This document shows, piece after piece, positions 2,483 to 10,053 of a DNA stretch of 20,000 bases (positions are counted from its first letter, which is position 1; each line of letters opens with the position of its first letter). Position numbers and translations under genes: made by a program. The DNA is from Candidatus Limnocylindrales bacterium. Lineage in GTDB: Bacteria > Moduliflexota > Moduliflexia > Moduliflexales > JAUQPW01. The notes below the pieces were generated by a model. It worked only from the letters and a program-made list of their open reading frames with translations. It had not been told where the DNA came from and did not search any database. The stretch is taken from assembly GCA_035559535.1 (NCBI GenBank), contig DATMBG010000039.1, forward strand, positions 56,816 to 76,815, in the 5' to 3' direction.

Positions 2483-2866
2483 CTAATCGGAGTTTCCCTC
2501 TGAAAGCCATCTAAGAATTCTAAAGTGCAAGGCCGCACTATTAAGATCTTCCATTTCACAAAATACTTTCATAAACTCGCGGCCTTCTATAAGGTAGCAC
2601 AGATCCTTAAAAAATAACGCAATAATAACCCCTTTACAGGTTTCTGGATCGATGGATTTATTTTTTAAGTATCGGACCAGAGTCGGATAGATTTTATCAC
2701 GCAAATACTCCCAGGATTTATCCACGGGCAAAACAACTTCATAAAAAAGAACTTTATCCCCGGACTCTTCCTGGGTTTTAGATAATTCTTCCAAAGTTTG
2801 GTTGTAAGCGATACCCGGTATGATTTTAAAGGCTTTTGAGAATAAAAGCTCACGAAAATCGGCCAC
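2483..2866 (-). CDS. Hypothetical soluble protein (127 aa), last gene of the HPF-sigma/anti-sigma/baeRF1 unit
   Basis: GTG start with AGGAGG RBS (2875-2880), 33 nt after the baeRF1 stop. Globular alpha/beta-like composition. Confidence 0.8.
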   Translation of the reverse strand: MADFRELLFSKAFKIIPGIAYNQTLEELSKTQEESGDKVLFYEVVLPVDKSWEYLRDKIYPTLVRYLKNKSIDPETCKGVIIALFFKDLCYLIEGREFMKVFCEMEDLNSAALHFRILRWLSEGNSD

Positions 2867-2899: not shown

Positions 2900-4075
2900 T
2901 CAAGCCGGTGGTAAAGCTCGAAGGGAAGCCGGCATTTTAAAGCGGAGTAAAGCTCCGATCCTTCCCAGTTGTTTTAAAATAGGATTATTTGGGATATGTT
3001 CCACTTCTCCCCGTTGGCGGTAGACTTCTTCAATAGCTTCATCTACCACATCGGGGACCTCTTCAAGGGGTCCTTGACAAATCGGGCAGGATTTTTCTTC
3101 CACCGTGGTTAAAAGTCCACAATTCCGGCACTCTAAGCCGGGAGCCGAAAAATCTTCCTCTACCAACAGGGTATGGATATTTCCTACATAAAGGGCTTTT
3201 AAGGTATCGTGTAACCCGGAGACCCCAAAGCCTCCCGTAGCCACTTCTTCCATAAGTCGGGTTACCAGTTGCACTTCCTGCTTCTGTTCCACATCTCTTT
3301 CGATCTGAAGGATTTGAGTCTTAATTTCCTGGATGGGGGTTTCCACATCCAGATCCAGCCGGGCGACCAATCTTTTTATGAGGAAGCTATGTAAACATCT
3401 TTCAAATTCCGGGAGGATATCGCTTCGTCCTCCAATAACAAGATAGTCGAAGCGCTTCTCTTTGAAGAAATCAAAGACCCGATCGGCAACCTGTTTAAGA
3501 TGCCGATAAACATGGTATTCAATATGACGCTCGATGCGTTTTTCTTCCAGACCGTACCACCCGGCTATCCGAACTTTTCCCGGAACCTCCTCATCAAAGA
3601 CTTTAAAATGCTCTAGAATTTCGCCTAAATACACCTCAAAGATTCTGGCTTTATCGCGACTGACCAGGACTAAACAATAGCGATGATATTCATCCAGGAG
3701 AACGGTTAGAGGGCGTATGTAGGGATCATTTCCAACCACGAGAACATTCTTAACAGGTCGGGGAAGCCGATATACTTGCCAGAAATCCTTTCCACTACAG
3801 GAGAAAATAGCCAGACCTCTGGTATTATTTCGTTTAAACTCTTCTCCTACAAAACGCTCGATTTTTTCAAAATCTTCTTCCAGGGATTTCATGACCCCAT
3901 GGGGTAGGTGTTCTGCTTCCAGCTCCAGCCGCCGTTCTTTAATTAAATTTTTAGTGATTGTTTCATAATCCCGGGGGGTATATTTACTTCCATCTACATT
4001 CAGATAAAAGCTACAGGTCTTATAGGTTTCTCCCTTAAAATTTAAAAGTTTCTCTATATCTGCCGAAGAAATCAT
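2900..4075 (-). CDS. Bacterial archaeo-eukaryotic release factor homolog (baeRF1, family-10-like / Balon-like) with a C-terminal Zn ribbon
   Basis: aeRF1-like three-domain layout: N-domain (SFYLNVDG...GLAIFSC), linker PYIRPL, middle domain (LVLVSRDKARIF...LVIGG), C-domain (G.SGL..TL.AL..G.I.TLLV, CRNC...CPIC, IGALLRF). ATG at 4075 is preceded by GGAGGTAAGGAG; the track's TTG at 4078 is the alternative. Confidence 0.88.
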   Translation of the reverse strand: MISSADIEKLLNFKGETYKTCSFYLNVDGSKYTPRDYETITKNLIKERRLELEAEHLPHGVMKSLEEDFEKIERFVGEEFKRNNTRGLAIFSCSGKDFWQVYRLPRPVKNVLVVGNDPYIRPLTVLLDEYHRYCLVLVSRDKARIFEVYLGEILEHFKVFDEEVPGKVRIAGWYGLEEKRIERHIEYHVYRHLKQVADRVFDFFKEKRFDYLVIGGRSDILPEFERCLHSFLIKRLVARLDLDVETPIQEIKTQILQIERDVEQKQEVQLVTRLMEEVATGGFGVSGLHDTLKALYVGNIHTLLVEEDFSAPGLECRNCGLLTTVEEKSCPICQGPLEEVPDVVDEAIEEVYRQRGEVEHIPNNPILKQLGRIGALLRFKMPASLRALPPA

Positions 4076-4139
4076 CAACTTCTCCTTACCTCCTTGTTGG
4101 TATCCTGGGATAGTCCGTTAAAGAAATCAGATTTCTTTG

Positions 4140-4376
4140 TTATTCTCGATTTTCTAAAGCTTGCTGAATCAATTTTTCCACCCGCTCTGAATAACCTTCC
4201 GGAAGGTCTACTTCTTCTAAAGTTGTAAAGAACTCTTCCGCCAGATTTAAAAGGGTCAGACGCTCTTCACAATTTGGGCACTCTTTAATATGTTCGGCAA
4301 TATCTTGAAGCAGGTCGGGGTGGAGTCCCTTATCCATATATTCTGAGAGGTAATTTATCACCAACTGACATTCCAT
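4140..4376 (-). CDS. Soluble zinc-binding anti-sigma factor (ZAS / zf-HC2)
   Basis: M.C......LS.Y.D..L.......HIKECPNC gives the HxxxCxxC signature. No TM helix. GGAGGTGA RBS. Lies directly downstream of an ECF-like sigma gene. Confidence 0.88.
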   Translation of the reverse strand: MECQLVINYLSEYMDKGLHPDLLQDIAEHIKECPNCEERLTLLNLAEEFFTTLEEVDLPEGYSERVEKLIQQALENRE

Positions 4377-4421: not shown

Positions 4422-5435
4422 TTACACGAGTTCTGTTTCTTCCAACTTTGCTTGTAAGAATTCCCGTGCAGATTGAATTTCTTTTCGTACCTCATCAACG
4501 GATTTTCTCCTCACCCAGGCCACTTCTTCCAGGCTGAAGCCTTCCACGCTGTAAAGTATAAAAGATTCCCGCCAGCCTTTGGGGAGTTGACTCAAGGTTT
4601 GATGAATATATTTTTGAATTTCTTGACGGGTTACGATCTCTTCAGGAGTCGGCATCTTATCATCCGGTACGAGATCTTCCAGTTTTAGAGTTTCATCCGG
4701 TTGCCAGAAATCCAGTATTTCACTTCCCAGGGTAGAGACGGCCTCTGTAGGCTCCGGTTCTGGAATTTCGGTTTCAACAGGAACTCTGGCCTCTCGCTCT
4801 GCTTTAATTTTCTCAACTTCCCGTTCCAAAATATCCAGGGCAATCCGATATAACCAGCGATCCAGGGGAAAGGAATCCGGCTTCTGATCAAAGTTTCTTA
4901 CTGCAAACAGAACAGTCTCATCTACTACGTCGGTAATCGTCAGATCATAGGGTTCTATATCTTCTATGAGTTGATGGTAGATGATCTCCCTTCGGACAAA
5001 ATTATAGAGTTTCTTAAGTTGAGGAAGGATCAGGTCGGTAAGTGCCTTAGCTTCATAGGTCTTTTCATAAGGAGCCATTCCCGAAACAAGTTCTTGAACT
5101 TGGAATTTAGCCCGCTTTCGCTTATAGGCATCTTCCATTCGGAGCTTACTTTTAACATCTTCCAGTTGCTTGAGGAGCTCTCCACAGACTTCTTTCAAAA
5201 CATGCCGAAGGTTCTTACCTTGCTCCTCGGCATGGAGTTGTCGTTTGGGAAGGGAAAGGGTGAAAAGAGCTGCATACTCCTCTTTTCTTGGGTGTTTCTC
5301 CAGGGTTACATGTAGAAATACTTGATCTTCCGGGAACTTTAAGGTTCGCCGTTCTATTCTTTTAATCTGTCTTTCCAGATAGTTCTTAATCGAAAACGCC
5401 GGCTCCAGATTCTTGTAGAAAACTTCGTGTCGCAA
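4422..5435 (-). CDS. Fusion of an HPF/RaiA (S30AE) ribosome-hibernation domain and an ECF-type sigma-70 factor (sigma2 + sigma4)
   Basis: The N-terminal ~100 aa fit the HPF beta-alpha-beta-beta-beta-alpha pattern (RHEVFYKNLE...IKNYLERQIKRIER...LHVTLEK...LSLPKRQLHAEEQG.NL...L..QL...K.KLR). Then sigma2-like LYNFVRR...DVVDET...WLYRIA and sigma4-like LSQLP..WRESFIL..VEGFSLEEVA. The likely start is TTG at 5435, 5 nt after GGAGGTGA (the track uses GTG 5453). Confidence 0.82.
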   Translation of the reverse strand: MRHEVFYKNLEPAFSIKNYLERQIKRIERRTLKFPEDQVFLHVTLEKHPRKEEYAALFTLSLPKRQLHAEEQGKNLRHVLKEVCGELLKQLEDVKSKLRMEDAYKRKRAKFQVQELVSGMAPYEKTYEAKALTDLILPQLKKLYNFVRREIIYHQLIEDIEPYDLTITDVVDETVLFAVRNFDQKPDSFPLDRWLYRIALDILEREVEKIKAEREARVPVETEIPEPEPTEAVSTLGSEILDFWQPDETLKLEDLVPDDKMPTPEEIVTRQEIQKYIHQTLSQLPKGWRESFILYSVEGFSLEEVAWVRRKSVDEVRKEIQSAREFLQAKLEETELV

Positions 5436-5741
5436 CAGACTCACCTCCGACACTCAATCCAACAGGATGAGAAGGGGATACTGGATTTGGAGGGAAACTG
5501 CCTTCCTTTCAGGGTTTTTTTCTTGACTTTGGGTTGTATTTGTGGGCTCTGGTCTTCAACCTGTTTGGGTCAGGTTAAAGGATCCAGAGCGCACGGGGTA
5601 GGGGTTTTCAGAAGGTTGATTCGGAAAAGCTACCTTCTCTCCCCTTTCTTAACATGGGCCAGGAAATTTACCCGTTGAATCGGATTCGGATCAACTGTTA
5701 TTGGATATCCTATACCTTTGTAGTGCCTTTACAGGCTTCCT

Positions 5742-7466
<1,725 letters not shown>

Positions 7467-7485
7467 TGGATCCTTCTCGGGACGG

Positions 7486-7773
7486 CTATTCTAGAATGGC
7501 TAAGACATCATCTTCTCGTAGGATGAGATACTCTTCCTCATCGAGTTTAACTTCAGTTCCCGCATATTTGCCGAAGAGAACTTTCTGACCAACCTGAACT
7601 TCCAGGGGCAATTGTTTACCGTTTTCTAACCACTTCCCCTTTCCAACCGCAATAACTTCACCCTGTTGAGGTTTCTCCTTGGCGGTATCTGGGATGATGA
7701 TCCCTCCTTTCCGAACTTCGGGTTCTTCTATTCTTTTAACGACGATTCGATCATGAAGTGGAGTAATTTTCAT
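7486..7773 (-). CDS. groS: Co-chaperonin GroES (Cpn10)
   Basis: [32 protein letters not shown] and KYAGTEVK motifs. AGGAGG RBS. Confidence 0.99.
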
Positions 7774-7891
7774 CGTTACTACCTCCTTTCAGGTGCAGTT
7801 TGACCATGGATTTTTAGAAAATTCTCTGACTTTAAGGTAAACTCTCAGGTATACCCAGGACGGTTGAAGGTTTTAGATGAGATTCACTTTT

Positions 7892-7920
7892 ATTATAAAA
7901 TCTTAGTCCGAATTTATCAA
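7892..7920 (-). promoter_or_regulatory. Sigma-70 type promoter for groES-groEL
   Basis: Minus strand reads TTGATA-N17-TATAAT (-35 at 7915-7920, -10 at 7892-7897), about 120 nt upstream of groES. Confidence 0.7.
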
Positions 7921-8025
7921 GTCTTTTTCTAATAACTTTAGAAAGTTAAATTCCCTCCTAAGGGTTATCCCCCTTCCCTTTTGTAAAAAATAGAGTAAAA
8001 AAACTTTGTTTATTTTTAACTGGGA

Positions 8026-10053
8026 TTAATCCTGGGTATAGAGTTGACGTATGTCATCTTCACGCCCCAATACGACCAGGATATCTCCTTCTTCCAGTTT
8101 TCGGTTGGGGTCTGGGAAGTGTCGCTGTTCCTTTCCATTTCGCCCGGGACTGATCACCGCTAAAACATTGAGGTGGTATTGAGTTCGGAGATTAGTTTCC
8201 CCAATGGTCCTACCGACCAGTTCAGGAGGTACTACAATTTTATCGATTCGGAATCCTTCCGGTAGCTCCAGACGATCGGTTAAAAGTTTATCTTCAGACC
8301 TGGTCACAAATCGGGACAGGAGCATTTTCCTTCGAAGGGCTTCCCGATCCAGGGTACTTAGGACATCCCGGCGGGTTACAATACCGAGAAACTGTAAAGA
8401 ATCTTTGCTTCTAACTACGGGCAACTCTTCCAGATCTTGAAGCCAGAACTTCTCTAAAACGTCTGCAAGTCGGTCCATAGGGTAGGCCACCGAGACCGGA
8501 GTGGCAAGGTCTTTGGCTATAACAAGGGTTTCAAGGTCTTTCTCAGAGAGGAACTCCTTGATATCGTGCAGGTTGATGACCCCTAAGAGATTTCCTCGCT
8601 GGTCTCCTACGTACAGATAGTCACTTCGGGAGGCATAAAATCGTTTTAGGATTTCATCGAAACGGAGATTTTCCGGGAGAAGCGAAACGCCTGTTTTTAA
8701 AATATCCTGAACCCGCATCGAATAGAGGACCATCTCTTCCATCCCACGGCTGAGTTGAATTCCGCGTTGTTTAAGTCTTTCGGTATAGATAGACTCTGGT
8801 TTGATCTTGCTGGCCACATAACTGCTGAGGATGCAGGAGAGCATTAAGGGAAGGATAATTCCGTAATCCAGTGTCAGCTCAAAAATGATCAGAATGGCCA
8901 TGATAGGGGCATGGGTTGTTCCGGCCAGCAGACATCCCATACCTACCAGGGCATAAGCCCCTGAGGGGGCCGTCAAGAGAGGAAAGAAATAGTTAACCGC
9001 ATTTCCTACTGCCCCTCCGAGGGCGGCTCCCACGAAGAGGCTGGGAGTAAAGACTCCTCCAGAACCGCCGGAGCCGACAGTGATGGCCGTGGCAATAATT
9101 TTTAAGAAAAAGAGGATCAGTACCAGGGGTCCGGGAAGCTGCTGATTTAAAATTCGGCTTGCGACTTCATAACCATTACCCCAGACGTGGGGAAAACTTA
9201 ATCCGAGGATTCCTACGAGGAATCCTCCCAAAGGAATCTTAAAATAAGCAGGAATTTTAATTTTTTTGAAAATTTCTTCTCCTTTAAAGAGGGCCTCAAT
9301 AAACAAATAGGCTGCAAATCCAGCCAGGATTCCCAGAAAGACATAAAAAATGAGCTCGAAATGGCTGACCATGGAAAAGGGTGGGATACGGTAGGTCGGT
9401 TGATTGCCCATGACTCCCCGGGATACAAGGGTTGCAGCAACCGAAGAGATCACCACAGGGGCAAAAATATCGGTAGCAAAGTTTCCCATGATAATCTCTA
9501 GAACGAAAATGGCGGCAGCGATGGGGGTATTATAAGCCGCTGCCATACCCGAGGCAACCCCACATCCCACCAGGATGCTCAGCTTGATTCTGGATATGCG
9601 GAGTAATTGCCCGAATTGGGAAGCAAGCATGGCCCCGATTTGTACGATAGGTCCCTCTCGGCCAACCGATCCGCCTGAACCAATGATCATCAACGACGAA
9701 AGGGATCTGAAAAGGACCGAACGAACTTCGATCTCTCCCCCCCTTAAAGAGACTGCCTCCATGATGTCAGAAATTCCGTAGGATTTAGTTTTTTTGGCCA
9801 GGGAATAGAGAATAAAGCTGGCCAGGGTTCCCCCTGCCGTGGGAACTAAAATCCGGTAATACCAGGGAAGTTGAAGGGCCGCATCCAGCAGATTTTCCCA
9901 AGAGCCTAGAAAGAGTCTTTGAACGATAGCCGTCAGATACTTAAAAATAATAGCTCCAAAGCCTCCCAGTATCCCTACGATGCCTGCATAGAGAAATAAA
10001 AGGGTCGTTTCATCCGGTCGGATTTGCCTGGGTTCTCTCAGAAAGACTCGCAT
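8026..10053 (-). CDS. CLC-family anion channel/transporter with a C-terminal CBS pair and a TrkA-C (RCK_C) domain
   Basis: GSGGSVGREGP, GxFxP (GGVFTP) and SIYT motifs with many TM helices. CBS-like repeats follow (G.LLGVI...DI; LPVV...LGIVTRRDVL), then an RCK_C-like tail (LVGRTIGETNLRTQY.LNVLAV...P.P...LEEGDILVVLG). Confidence 0.93.
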   Translation of the reverse strand: MRVFLREPRQIRPDETTLLFLYAGIVGILGGFGAIIFKYLTAIVQRLFLGSWENLLDAALQLPWYYRILVPTAGGTLASFILYSLAKKTKSYGISDIMEAVSLRGGEIEVRSVLFRSLSSLMIIGSGGSVGREGPIVQIGAMLASQFGQLLRISRIKLSILVGCGVASGMAAAYNTPIAAAIFVLEIIMGNFATDIFAPVVISSVAATLVSRGVMGNQPTYRIPPFSMVSHFELIFYVFLGILAGFAAYLFIEALFKGEEIFKKIKIPAYFKIPLGGFLVGILGLSFPHVWGNGYEVASRILNQQLPGPLVLILFFLKIIATAITVGSGGSGGVFTPSLFVGAALGGAVGNAVNYFFPLLTAPSGAYALVGMGCLLAGTTHAPIMAILIIFELTLDYGIILPLMLSCILSSYVASKIKPESIYTERLKQRGIQLSRGMEEMVLYSMRVQDILKTGVSLLPENLRFDEILKRFYASRSDYLYVGDQRGNLLGVINLHDIKEFLSEKDLETLVIAKDLATPVSVAYPMDRLADVLEKFWLQDLEELPVVRSKDSLQFLGIVTRRDVLSTLDREALRRKMLLSRFVTRSEDKLLTDRLELPEGFRIDKIVVPPELVGRTIGETNLRTQYHLNVLAVISPGRNGKEQRHFPDPNRKLEEGDILVVLGREDDIRQLYTQD

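Follow-up and report, generated by a model that had tools for sequence, protein, structure and literature searches.

A ribosome-hibernation domain joined in one gene to an ECF-type sigma factor module, encoded with an anti-sigma factor and a Balon-like protein beside groESL

What might a cell gain from joining a ribosome-hibernation domain to a sigma factor in one polypeptide? This question is raised by a gene on the minus strand of a 20,000-nucleotide stretch of DNA from Candidatus Limnocylindrales bacterium (contig DATMBG010000039.1, positions 56,816 to 76,815; hereafter the window), which an earlier note, made from the sequence alone, had read as a fusion of a hibernation-promoting factor (HPF) domain and a sigma factor of the extracytoplasmic function (ECF) class. 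The coordinates, the domain order and the uninterrupted open reading frame (ORF) given there hold, and the Pfam and NCBIfam matches of the protein exceed the curated thresholds. We confirm that the gene joins a ribosome-hibernation domain to an ECF-type sigma factor module, and our observations comprise its architecture, the folds and conservation of its two halves, its gene linkage and a predicted interface between its sigma module and a zinc-binding anti-sigma (ZAS) factor. The gene and its parts are laid out as follows.

4422..5435, minus strand: HPF-ECF sigma fusion gene, 337 amino acids (aa) from a TTG start codon at 5435
5121..5435, minus strand: HPF/RaiA-type domain, residues 1-105, beta-alpha-beta-beta-beta-alpha (PF02482, AlphaFold2, Foldseek)
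4788..5069, minus strand: sigma2-like domain, residues 123-216, three helices (TIGR02937, AlphaFold2, Foldseek)
4647..4787, minus strand: acidic, proline-rich linker between sigma2 and sigma4, residues 217-263, predicted to be disordered
4437..4646, minus strand: sigma4 domain (helix-turn-helix), residues 264-333 (Sigma70_r4_2, AlphaFold2, Foldseek)

The longest form of the ORF (4422..5453, minus strand) encodes 343 aa from a GTG at 5453 and is free of internal stops. The TTG at 5435 lies in the same frame, 8 nt after a GGAGG Shine-Dalgarno site (5448-5444); a database homologue with 94% identity (P0001) is also 337 aa long, and in the near-identical contig L001 a GTG replaces the TTG. An AlphaFold2 (AF2) model of the fusion protein, based on an alignment of 87 sequences, has a mean predicted local distance difference test score (pLDDT) of 81 and a predicted template modelling score (pTM) of 0.50. 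An assembly or frameshift artefact is ruled out, since fused homologues occur in many independent assemblies. Homologues are overwhelmingly single fused genes, not always two separate genes, the pattern that the earlier note had named as speaking against its reading; we saw one frameshifted or split copy (L012, see below).

The N-terminal half has the HPF fold, the point that the earlier note had set as the test of its proposal and that both the AF2 model and Foldseek bear out. In the 343-aa form, Pfam places Ribosomal_S30AE (PF02482) at residues 13-105, its 32.1 bits exceeding the cut-off of 23.7 (the genome search gives 35.6 bits), and AF2 predicts, with a pLDDT of ~90, a strand at residues 2-8, a helix at 14-30, strands at 40-47, 54-62 and 65-73, and a second helix at 76-117. 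In Foldseek searches against the PDB, this half matches 4hei_A (TMt 0.87, rmsd 2.2) and 8uu7_w (TMt 0.82, rmsd 2.4), as well as 8rd8_D, the RaiA chain of the ribosome with bound Balon and RaiA. By phmmer, residues 3-100 align with Listeria HPF (8uu4_w, E 3.5e-4), and the domain can be aligned end to end with the N-terminal domains of Listeria and Staphylococcus aureus HPF. Fold and alignable sequence are thus shared with both long HPF and short HPF/RaiA; unlike long HPF, which has a dimerisation domain at this place, the fusion continues into the sigma2-sigma4 module. Across the 54 sequences of the Terriglobales clade (mean identity 66%), conservation reaches 90% or more in most HPF columns. 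The second HPF helix extends as a basic helix to about residue 117 (position 5085) and leads into a basic linker between the two heads, for which AF2 confidence is low at residues 105-125 and pLDDT falls below 50 at residues 117-124. Residues L98, R99, W104 and R106 of this linker helix are conserved (alignment A2).

The C-terminal half resembles ECF sigma factors in sequence and fold. The NCBIfam sigma70-ECF model TIGR02937 scores 50.7 bits against a cut-off of 42.9 (residues 137-337), and Pfam Sigma70_r4_2 scores 26.0 bits against 25.7 (residues 282-333). AF2 predicts sigma2 helices at residues 123-156, 167-180 and 191-216 and a four-helix sigma4 at 264-333, and with this module Foldseek finds Mycobacterium tuberculosis SigH (6jcy_F), Escherichia coli SigE, SigW-RsiW and CnrH-CnrY in the PDB. 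Among the 54 Terriglobales sequences the sigma2 helices match the HPF domain in conservation, and sigma2 together with the hallmark positions of sigma4 (R289, E298, G299, A323 and R324) is kept from Acidobacteriota to Proteobacteria. The linker that separates sigma2 from sigma4 reads ETEIPEPEPTE...LDFWQPDETLKLEDLVPD in the translation, as previously quoted, and its pLDDT lies below 50 at residues 221-242.

The family to which this protein belongs is large, with 508 cluster representatives at E<=1e-30, a relative in 409 of 185,579 species genomes and a relative on 307 plasmids. The first number comes from a profile search of 1.84 billion cluster representatives; at E<=0.001 the same search returns 98,846 proteins, which must be mostly ordinary ECF sigmas. 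Among its 150 best representatives, 111 carry both halves, 26 match in the sigma part alone and 13 in the N-terminal part alone; fragments account for some of these partial matches. The genome count rests on a scan of one genome per species with two peptide patterns, which gave 464 matches, 409 of them encoding a relative. All neighbour counts below rest on the best 80 of these 409 loci, which are mostly from Terriglobales and other Acidobacteriota and include Nitrospirae, several Gammaproteobacteria, Myxococcales, Desulfobacteraceae and Binatia. A word-indexed protein search gave 18 matches; nine are 337-378 aa long and cover 89-98% of the query, seven of these nine combining PF02482 with a sigma4 family according to precomputed Pfam matches, and the others are mostly sigma-only relatives of 265-273 aa (P0011-P0018, e.g., P0016 from Ramlibacter) with the linker motif described below. 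Within the phylum assigned to the window by GTDB, which has nine species genomes, the full-length fusion is restricted to the genus of the window (two of two genomes), and no full-length match was found in the other seven genomes (77-97% complete). This confinement to the window's genome and one congener points to horizontal acquisition of the fusion in this phylum.

The plasmid relatives were found by tblastn against 72,556 plasmids; 282 of the 307 records have at least 80% query cover, and the hosts include Klebsiella (126), Enterobacter (74), Acinetobacter (32) and Escherichia (22). The match on an IncP plasmid of Klebsiella is annotated as a hypothetical protein between hdeD-GI and trx-GI of a heat-resistance island. 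This is where the published gene order for tLST (transmissible locus of stress tolerance), or LHR (locus of heat resistance), places orf11 (PMC8290217), which identifies the match as orf11. BLASTP aligns the fusion with Orf11 over residues 1-334 at 26% identity (E 3e-24), the F-x-QPD motif included. At E<=0.01 Orf11 has no Pfam match, so that the homology rests on tblastn and BLASTP. Judged by these sequence comparisons, orf11 of the enterobacterial heat-resistance island is a member of the HPF-ECF sigma fusion family, a link of which we found no statement in the tLST literature. Its neighbours in the island encode a small heat-shock protein (sHSP), ClpK, HdeD and Trx, and on a Paraburkholderia symbiosis plasmid the fusion gene lies between three Hsp20 genes and groES-groEL-dnaK.

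Within the otherwise disordered sigma2-sigma4 linker we observed a motif, F-x-QPDE-x-L-x-x-E (QPDE at 4692-4703, minus strand; residues 245-248). This motif is the most conserved short stretch of the sigma half and is also present in the sigma-only relatives and, as QPDD, in tLST Orf11. In alignment A2 QPDE is invariant, which is partly circular because one of the two patterns used in the locus search contained QPDE, and the loci of A2 were partly chosen by it; a family-wide claim of invariance was therefore withdrawn. In the profile search, which uses no such pattern, 76 of the 150 best representatives have QPDE, eight have QPDD and 38, some of them fragments, have no match to x-QP-xx.

Could the fusion be a precursor from which two proteins are released? 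In one copy, from a Binatia metagenome-assembled genome (MAG; L012), the HPF half (7603-7956, plus strand, 117 aa) and the sigma half (7908-8675, plus strand, 255 aa) overlap in different frames, either as a natural split or through a frameshift error. By analogy with BldN (ECF121), whose N-terminal extension is described as being removed by proteolysis before anti-sigma control sets in (PMC7826278, Casas-Pastor et al.), cleavage in the disordered basic linker might free an HPF and a mature ECF sigma. The low-confidence linker at residues 105-125, the BldN extension as a precedent and the halves of L012 in different frames would fit such a pro-sigma or polyprotein. On the other side, no protease gene is consistently linked to the fusion, the conserved linker-helix residues argue for a function beyond that of a mere cleavage spacer, and the L012 split may be a sequencing frameshift. 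As far as that survey describes them, BldN/ECF121 and SigC/ECF36s4 do share with the fusion a regulatory extension in front of sigma2, sometimes together with an anti-sigma, but their extensions are short and not a folded ribosome-binding domain. We regard cleavage into two working proteins as very unlikely.

A candidate regulator of the sigma module is encoded directly downstream.

4140..4376, minus strand: soluble anti-sigma factor of the ZAS type, 78 aa, starting 45 nt past the fusion stop codon (zf-HC2)

Pfam zf-HC2 scores 28.3 bits against a cut-off of 22.2, the NCBIfam RsrA model TIGR03988 matches weakly, and the zinc ligands C3, H29, C33 and C36 are invariant in seven of seven orthologues. 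No hydrophobic segment was found in the 78 aa. A ZAS gene directly follows the fusion in six of the 80 loci (L001, L002, L004, L005, L006 and L008), and these six fall among the eight closest relatives. When residues 121-337 are modelled in a complex with the ZAS protein, the interface score ipSAE reaches 0.83, 0.83 and 0.84, whereas the best of three controls gives 0.00; the mark applied is one that 58 of 80 solved complexes and two of 110 mismatched pairs reach. The pLDDT of the partner is at least 88, contacts agree between runs to at least 89%, and they span sigma2 (residues 128-180) and sigma4 (270-332) and exclude the QPDE motif. Since sigma and ZAS are a textbook pair with solved complexes, this pass may reflect only the likeness to such complexes. 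ECF sigmas with a soluble ZAS anti-sigma are known as the SigR-RsrA type, and in known systems the anti-sigma keeps its sigma off RNA polymerase. The window ZAS resembles this type in being small and soluble, in its C...HxxxCxxC arrangement and in its predicted binding between sigma2 and sigma4. Unlike SigR, the window sigma carries a 120-residue HPF extension, and no ECF-type autoregulatory promoter was identified for it.

Which partner might the HPF half have? Two genes downstream of the fusion, and left aside by the earlier note, as was the groESL pair upstream, lies a gene related to that of the hibernation factor Balon.

2900..4078, minus strand: Balon-like homologue of archaeal-eukaryotic release factor 1 (aeRF1), 392 aa, of the bacterial aeRF1 (baeRF) family 10 with an eRF1 domain 3 (PF18854, phmmer)

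The gene starts 61 nt after the ZAS gene. PF18854 scores 100.3 bits in its product against a cut-off of 27.1, the NCBIfam Balon-type models all stay below their cut-offs (AOC03_06830 78.9 of 330 bits, MSMEG_1130 65.0 of 480, Rv2629 42.1 of 320), and by phmmer Mycobacterium smegmatis Balon (8v9j_z) matches with E 3.3e-8. The GGQ motif is missing, AGWYGLEE standing where archaeal aRF1 has GGQSQ; the Terriglobales baeRF10 copies have GGHAQ or GGHAE in the GGQ loop. Because the Balon-type scores lie far under the cut-offs, the match to Balon itself has E 3.3e-8 and GGQ is absent, we call the protein Balon-like and not Balon, and because AGWYGLEE replaces GGQ, a role as peptidyl hydrolase appears unlikely from the sequence. 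Of the 80 loci, 57 have a baeRF10 homologue downstream of the fusion and in the same orientation, and 78 have at least 1300 nt of downstream sequence. The gap between the two genes is 24-43 nt in 53 of the 57 pairs and 79, 279, 344 and 1221 nt in the other four. As one order, the Terriglobales, dominates, these pairs are not independent events; the pairing is also seen in a Blastocatellia MAG (L003) and, within the clade of the window, in L001 and L004.

An operonic association of bacterial aeRF1 families with HPF was noted by Burroughs and Aravind (PMC6514570). Work on Balon reports that Balon and RaiA bind the same ribosome, that raiA is the most frequent neighbour of Balon genes and that alternative sigma-70 factors are among the Balon operon partners (PMC10901736, Helena-Bueno et al.). 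In the Balon-RaiA system as described there, an aeRF1-like factor without GGQ is likewise encoded beside an HPF-family gene; in contrast, the HPF partner in the window is fused to a sigma, and the aeRF1-like protein belongs to baeRF family 10 and scores below the Balon cut-offs.

On the other side of the fusion, the window carries the chaperonin genes, and one more small ORF follows the Balon-like gene.

5436..5741, minus strand: spacer of 306 nt between groEL and the fusion
5742..7364, minus strand: groEL, directly upstream of the fusion (translation, 99% identical in L001)
7486..7773, minus strand: groES (translation)
2483..2866, minus strand: 127-aa ORF, 33 nt after the Balon-like gene, no Pfam family

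With the Balon-like gene downstream and groESL upstream, the fusion sits in a module of hibernation and proteotoxic-stress genes. groESL adjoins the fusion in both the window and L001. A Trx2-type thioredoxin gene adjoins it in L003, L011, L012 (41 nt downstream), L031 and the tLST, and genes for HdeD, Hsp20 or DnaK lie near it in L011, L010 and L031. Ribosome hibernation together with proteotoxic or thiol stress is thus a recurring theme of the neighbours, and other lineages have unrelated ones. Orf11 of the tLST is comparable to the window protein as a full-length homologue set in an island for heat and oxidative stress, but it is very divergent, plasmid- or island-borne and has no ZAS or Balon-like neighbour.

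The SigE-HPF architecture as such is already known. A 2025 preprint (10.1101/2025.11.04.686544) covers divergent isoforms of HPF in which the dimerisation domain is missing and a Csp, SigE or CBS domain is attached, and reports that such chimeric hpf genes coexist with canonical HPF and often adjoin genes of non-canonical factors such as Balon. As portrayed in its text, the SigE-HPF chimeras share with the window protein an HPF N-terminal domain without dimerisation domain followed by a SigE-like module, a separate canonical HPF, frequent Balon adjacency, horizontal scatter and occurrence on plasmids. We found no mention in its text of an adjacent ZAS, a linkage to groESL, the name orf11 of the tLST, or binding or transcription experiments. 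What the locus adds to this known architecture is a dedicated ZAS together with a Balon-like partner beside groESL. The guess of the earlier note that such fusions might be present in databases and without functional study proved right, in that this one preprint treats, in its text, the architecture only; no binding, structural or transcription experiment on HPF-sigma fusions was found in the literature, and the terms S30AE, ribosom- and hibernation do not occur in the main text of the ECF re-classification (PMC7826278).

The window's genome encodes three more HPF-family proteins elsewhere, four in all. One is a canonical long HPF of 185 aa directly after rpoN (L081:1216-1773, minus strand). 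The other two join HPF to a cold-shock-domain-like C-terminus (...GYGF...): a protein of 182 aa on contig C41 (L082:1258-1806, minus strand) and a second such chimera of 178 aa on contig C37 (L083:1258-1794, minus strand).

How could the parts of the window module work together? We tentatively favour, as somewhat short of an even chance, a protein with two working heads, of which the HPF head acts on idle ribosomes together with the Balon-like partner and the sigma head is thiol-gated through the ZAS. The N-terminal head would bind the decoding region of idle 30S or 70S ribosomes, as HPF and RaiA do, and would act alongside the co-expressed Balon-like factor under proteotoxic or oxidative stress. 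The C-terminal head would be a still-competent ECF-type sigma2-sigma4 module, which the zinc-loaded ZAS would clamp in the reduced cytoplasm and which thiol oxidation would free to bind RNA polymerase. In this way the fusion could link ribosome hibernation to the control of sigma and RNA polymerase; its ribosome binding, RNA polymerase binding, promoter-specific transcription and direction of regulation are what we infer here. The window offers an informative variant of the family, in which one module beside groESL unites the fusion, a dedicated, putatively redox-sensing anti-sigma and a Balon-like factor, so that sigma activity and cross-talk between ribosome and transcription can be addressed with purified parts.

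Several observations weigh against an active sigma head. ECF sigma genes typically, though not universally, carry an ECF-type promoter of their own for autoregulation. No such promoter was found in 53 Terriglobales loci or in five upstream regions of the ZAS clade. Instead, 51 of the 53 Terriglobales loci have a conserved element, cgGGTGTA(c/g)AAT, that is located ~65 nt ahead of the ATG and preceded by a TTGcc/TTGAC-like box; this looks sigma70-like rather than ECF-like. In the ZAS clade, the five divergent upstream regions have only Shine-Dalgarno-like words in common and no bipartite motif. Pfam Sigma70_r2 (PF04542) has no match in the window protein at E<=1, despite which the sigma2-like fold is supported by AF2 and Foldseek; in the sigma-only relative P0016 from Ramlibacter it reaches 21.2 bits, under the cut-off of 24. 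Conservation within Terriglobales is comparatively low in the recognition helix of sigma4, and in some family members the PhyR_sigma-like family scores about as high as Sigma70_r4_2. An adjacent anti-sigma is absent in 74 of the 80 loci. Finally, in E. coli MG1655 lacZ::LHR, orf11 is reported to lie outside the seven of 13 genes that were needed for heat or chlorine resistance, and its deletion left membrane lipid oxidation unchanged (PMC8407380).

Several of these points also speak for a pure hibernation factor, whose sigma-derived C-terminus no longer acts in transcription but stands in place of long HPF's dimerisation domain, serving in regulation, oligomerisation or the docking of a partner. 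The sigma70-like promoter without visible ECF-type autoregulation, the variable recognition helix, the missing Sigma70_r2 match and the tight coupling of the fusion to the Balon-like gene fit this account, and the text of the preprint, which speaks of HPF isoforms without a C-terminal dimerisation domain, takes essentially the same position. The lack of a phenotype of the orf11 deletion is also in line with it, as the reported heat and chlorine challenges were short, lasting 5 minutes (PMC8407380), and the advantages of hibernation factors are described as typically showing only after extended stress (PMC10901736). Against it stand sigma2 and the hallmark positions of sigma4, both retained across phyla, the stand-alone sigma relatives, and the window's clade, which keeps a ZAS with intact zinc ligands that is predicted to lie over the sigma2 and sigma4 surfaces. 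A purely hibernating protein is thus a possible, if somewhat doubtful, answer; even with an inert sigma half, the locus would still be a compact non-canonical hibernation module.

The earlier note had gone in another direction and proposed that vacant ribosomes themselves act as the anti-sigma, so that the availability of the sigma reports translational idleness, or that RNA polymerase is tethered to dormant ribosomes; as a further alternative it suggested that HPF activity might be gated by the anti-sigma. In favour of the first two proposals, the two heads seem intact and under selection and are connected by a flexible basic linker, and the many loci lacking an adjacent protein anti-sigma leave room for another sequestering partner. 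However, the objections to sigma activity from promoter, recognition helix and orf11 deletion apply here as they do to the two-headed protein with its ZAS, and sequestration on vacant ribosomes would, save under inverted logic, silence the sigma just when one would expect a stress regulon to be active. We consider vacant ribosomes as the anti-sigma, or such a tethering, distinctly unlikely. A combination of both ideas, in which the HPF head would read ribosome vacancy while the ZAS-gated sigma head engages RNA polymerase, either with sigma availability set by ribosomes or with RNA polymerase parked on hibernating ribosomes, appears to us rather improbable, though less so. A two-input switch of this kind, if true, would make the fusion the first sigma factor under the control of ribosome binding, and orf11, still unexplained in the clinically widespread tLST island, would gain a function.

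The near-equal scores of the PhyR_sigma-like family raise one more question, namely whether the C-terminal module is a sigma mimic. Like PhyR, it might serve as an anti-anti-sigma that titrates the ZAS away from another, true sigma. PF22233 (PhyR_sigma-like) scores 19.3 bits in the sigma4 region of the window protein (cut-off 27) and 28.9 bits in L019, above that cut-off, and the variable DNA-recognition helix would suit a mimic. Yet PhyR-like mimics have a receiver domain, with NepR and EcfG as partners, and neither Pfam nor NCBIfam finds a receiver domain in the fusion; no second sigma gene is present in the module, and most family members have no anti-sigma nearby that could be titrated. 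Mimicry is therefore highly improbable in our view, and the protein with two working heads remains the reading that we put first.

Transcription of the window module was examined with a generic sigma-70 scan. It gave no promoter match on the minus strand of the spacer between groEL and the fusion (5436-5741), and its total over the scanned region, six matches, is no higher than in shuffled sequence (mean 6.8). A TTGAAG-15 nt-TACAAC arrangement is visible by eye in this spacer and was not counted as evidence. The spacer of L001, the sole near relative, has 88% column identity and is too similar for a comparison. Upstream of groES, a sigma70-like promoter match at 7920-7892 agrees in 11 of 12 positions, and no CIRCE operator was found there at up to three mismatches to the consensus. 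The spacer also contains a hairpin at 5486-5513, with 11 pairs followed by a T-run on the plus strand, where no plus-strand gene ends; on the minus strand it would be a leader hairpin preceded by an A-run.

In Terriglobales, the leader of the fusion-baeRF pair carries a conserved hairpin, CACGGAA...TTCCGTG (e.g., L053:7880-7946 and L024:7895-7961, both plus strand). Compensatory changes occur in three of the 14 predicted pairs, and the outer pairs overlap the CCGAGG Shine-Dalgarno region (12 of 53 loci folded). Its role may be that of a translational control element or an RNA thermometer.

Among the gene neighbourhoods, a Bryobacterales MAG (L011) has hdeD (7071-7658, plus strand) immediately upstream of the fusion and a thioredoxin gene (6225-6662, minus strand) nearby, an order that echoes hdeD-orf11-trx of the tLST outside Proteobacteria. 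A gene for an Asparaginase_2 protein of the isoaspartyl peptidase type lies downstream of the fusion-baeRF pair in 47 of the 80 loci (e.g., L019:10439-11674, plus strand) and directly after the fusion in L020 and L034; this linkage may reflect Terriglobales synteny or a connection to protein damage. In the window itself, the 127-aa ORF behind the Balon-like gene is 98% identical in L001 and may be a fourth member of the module.

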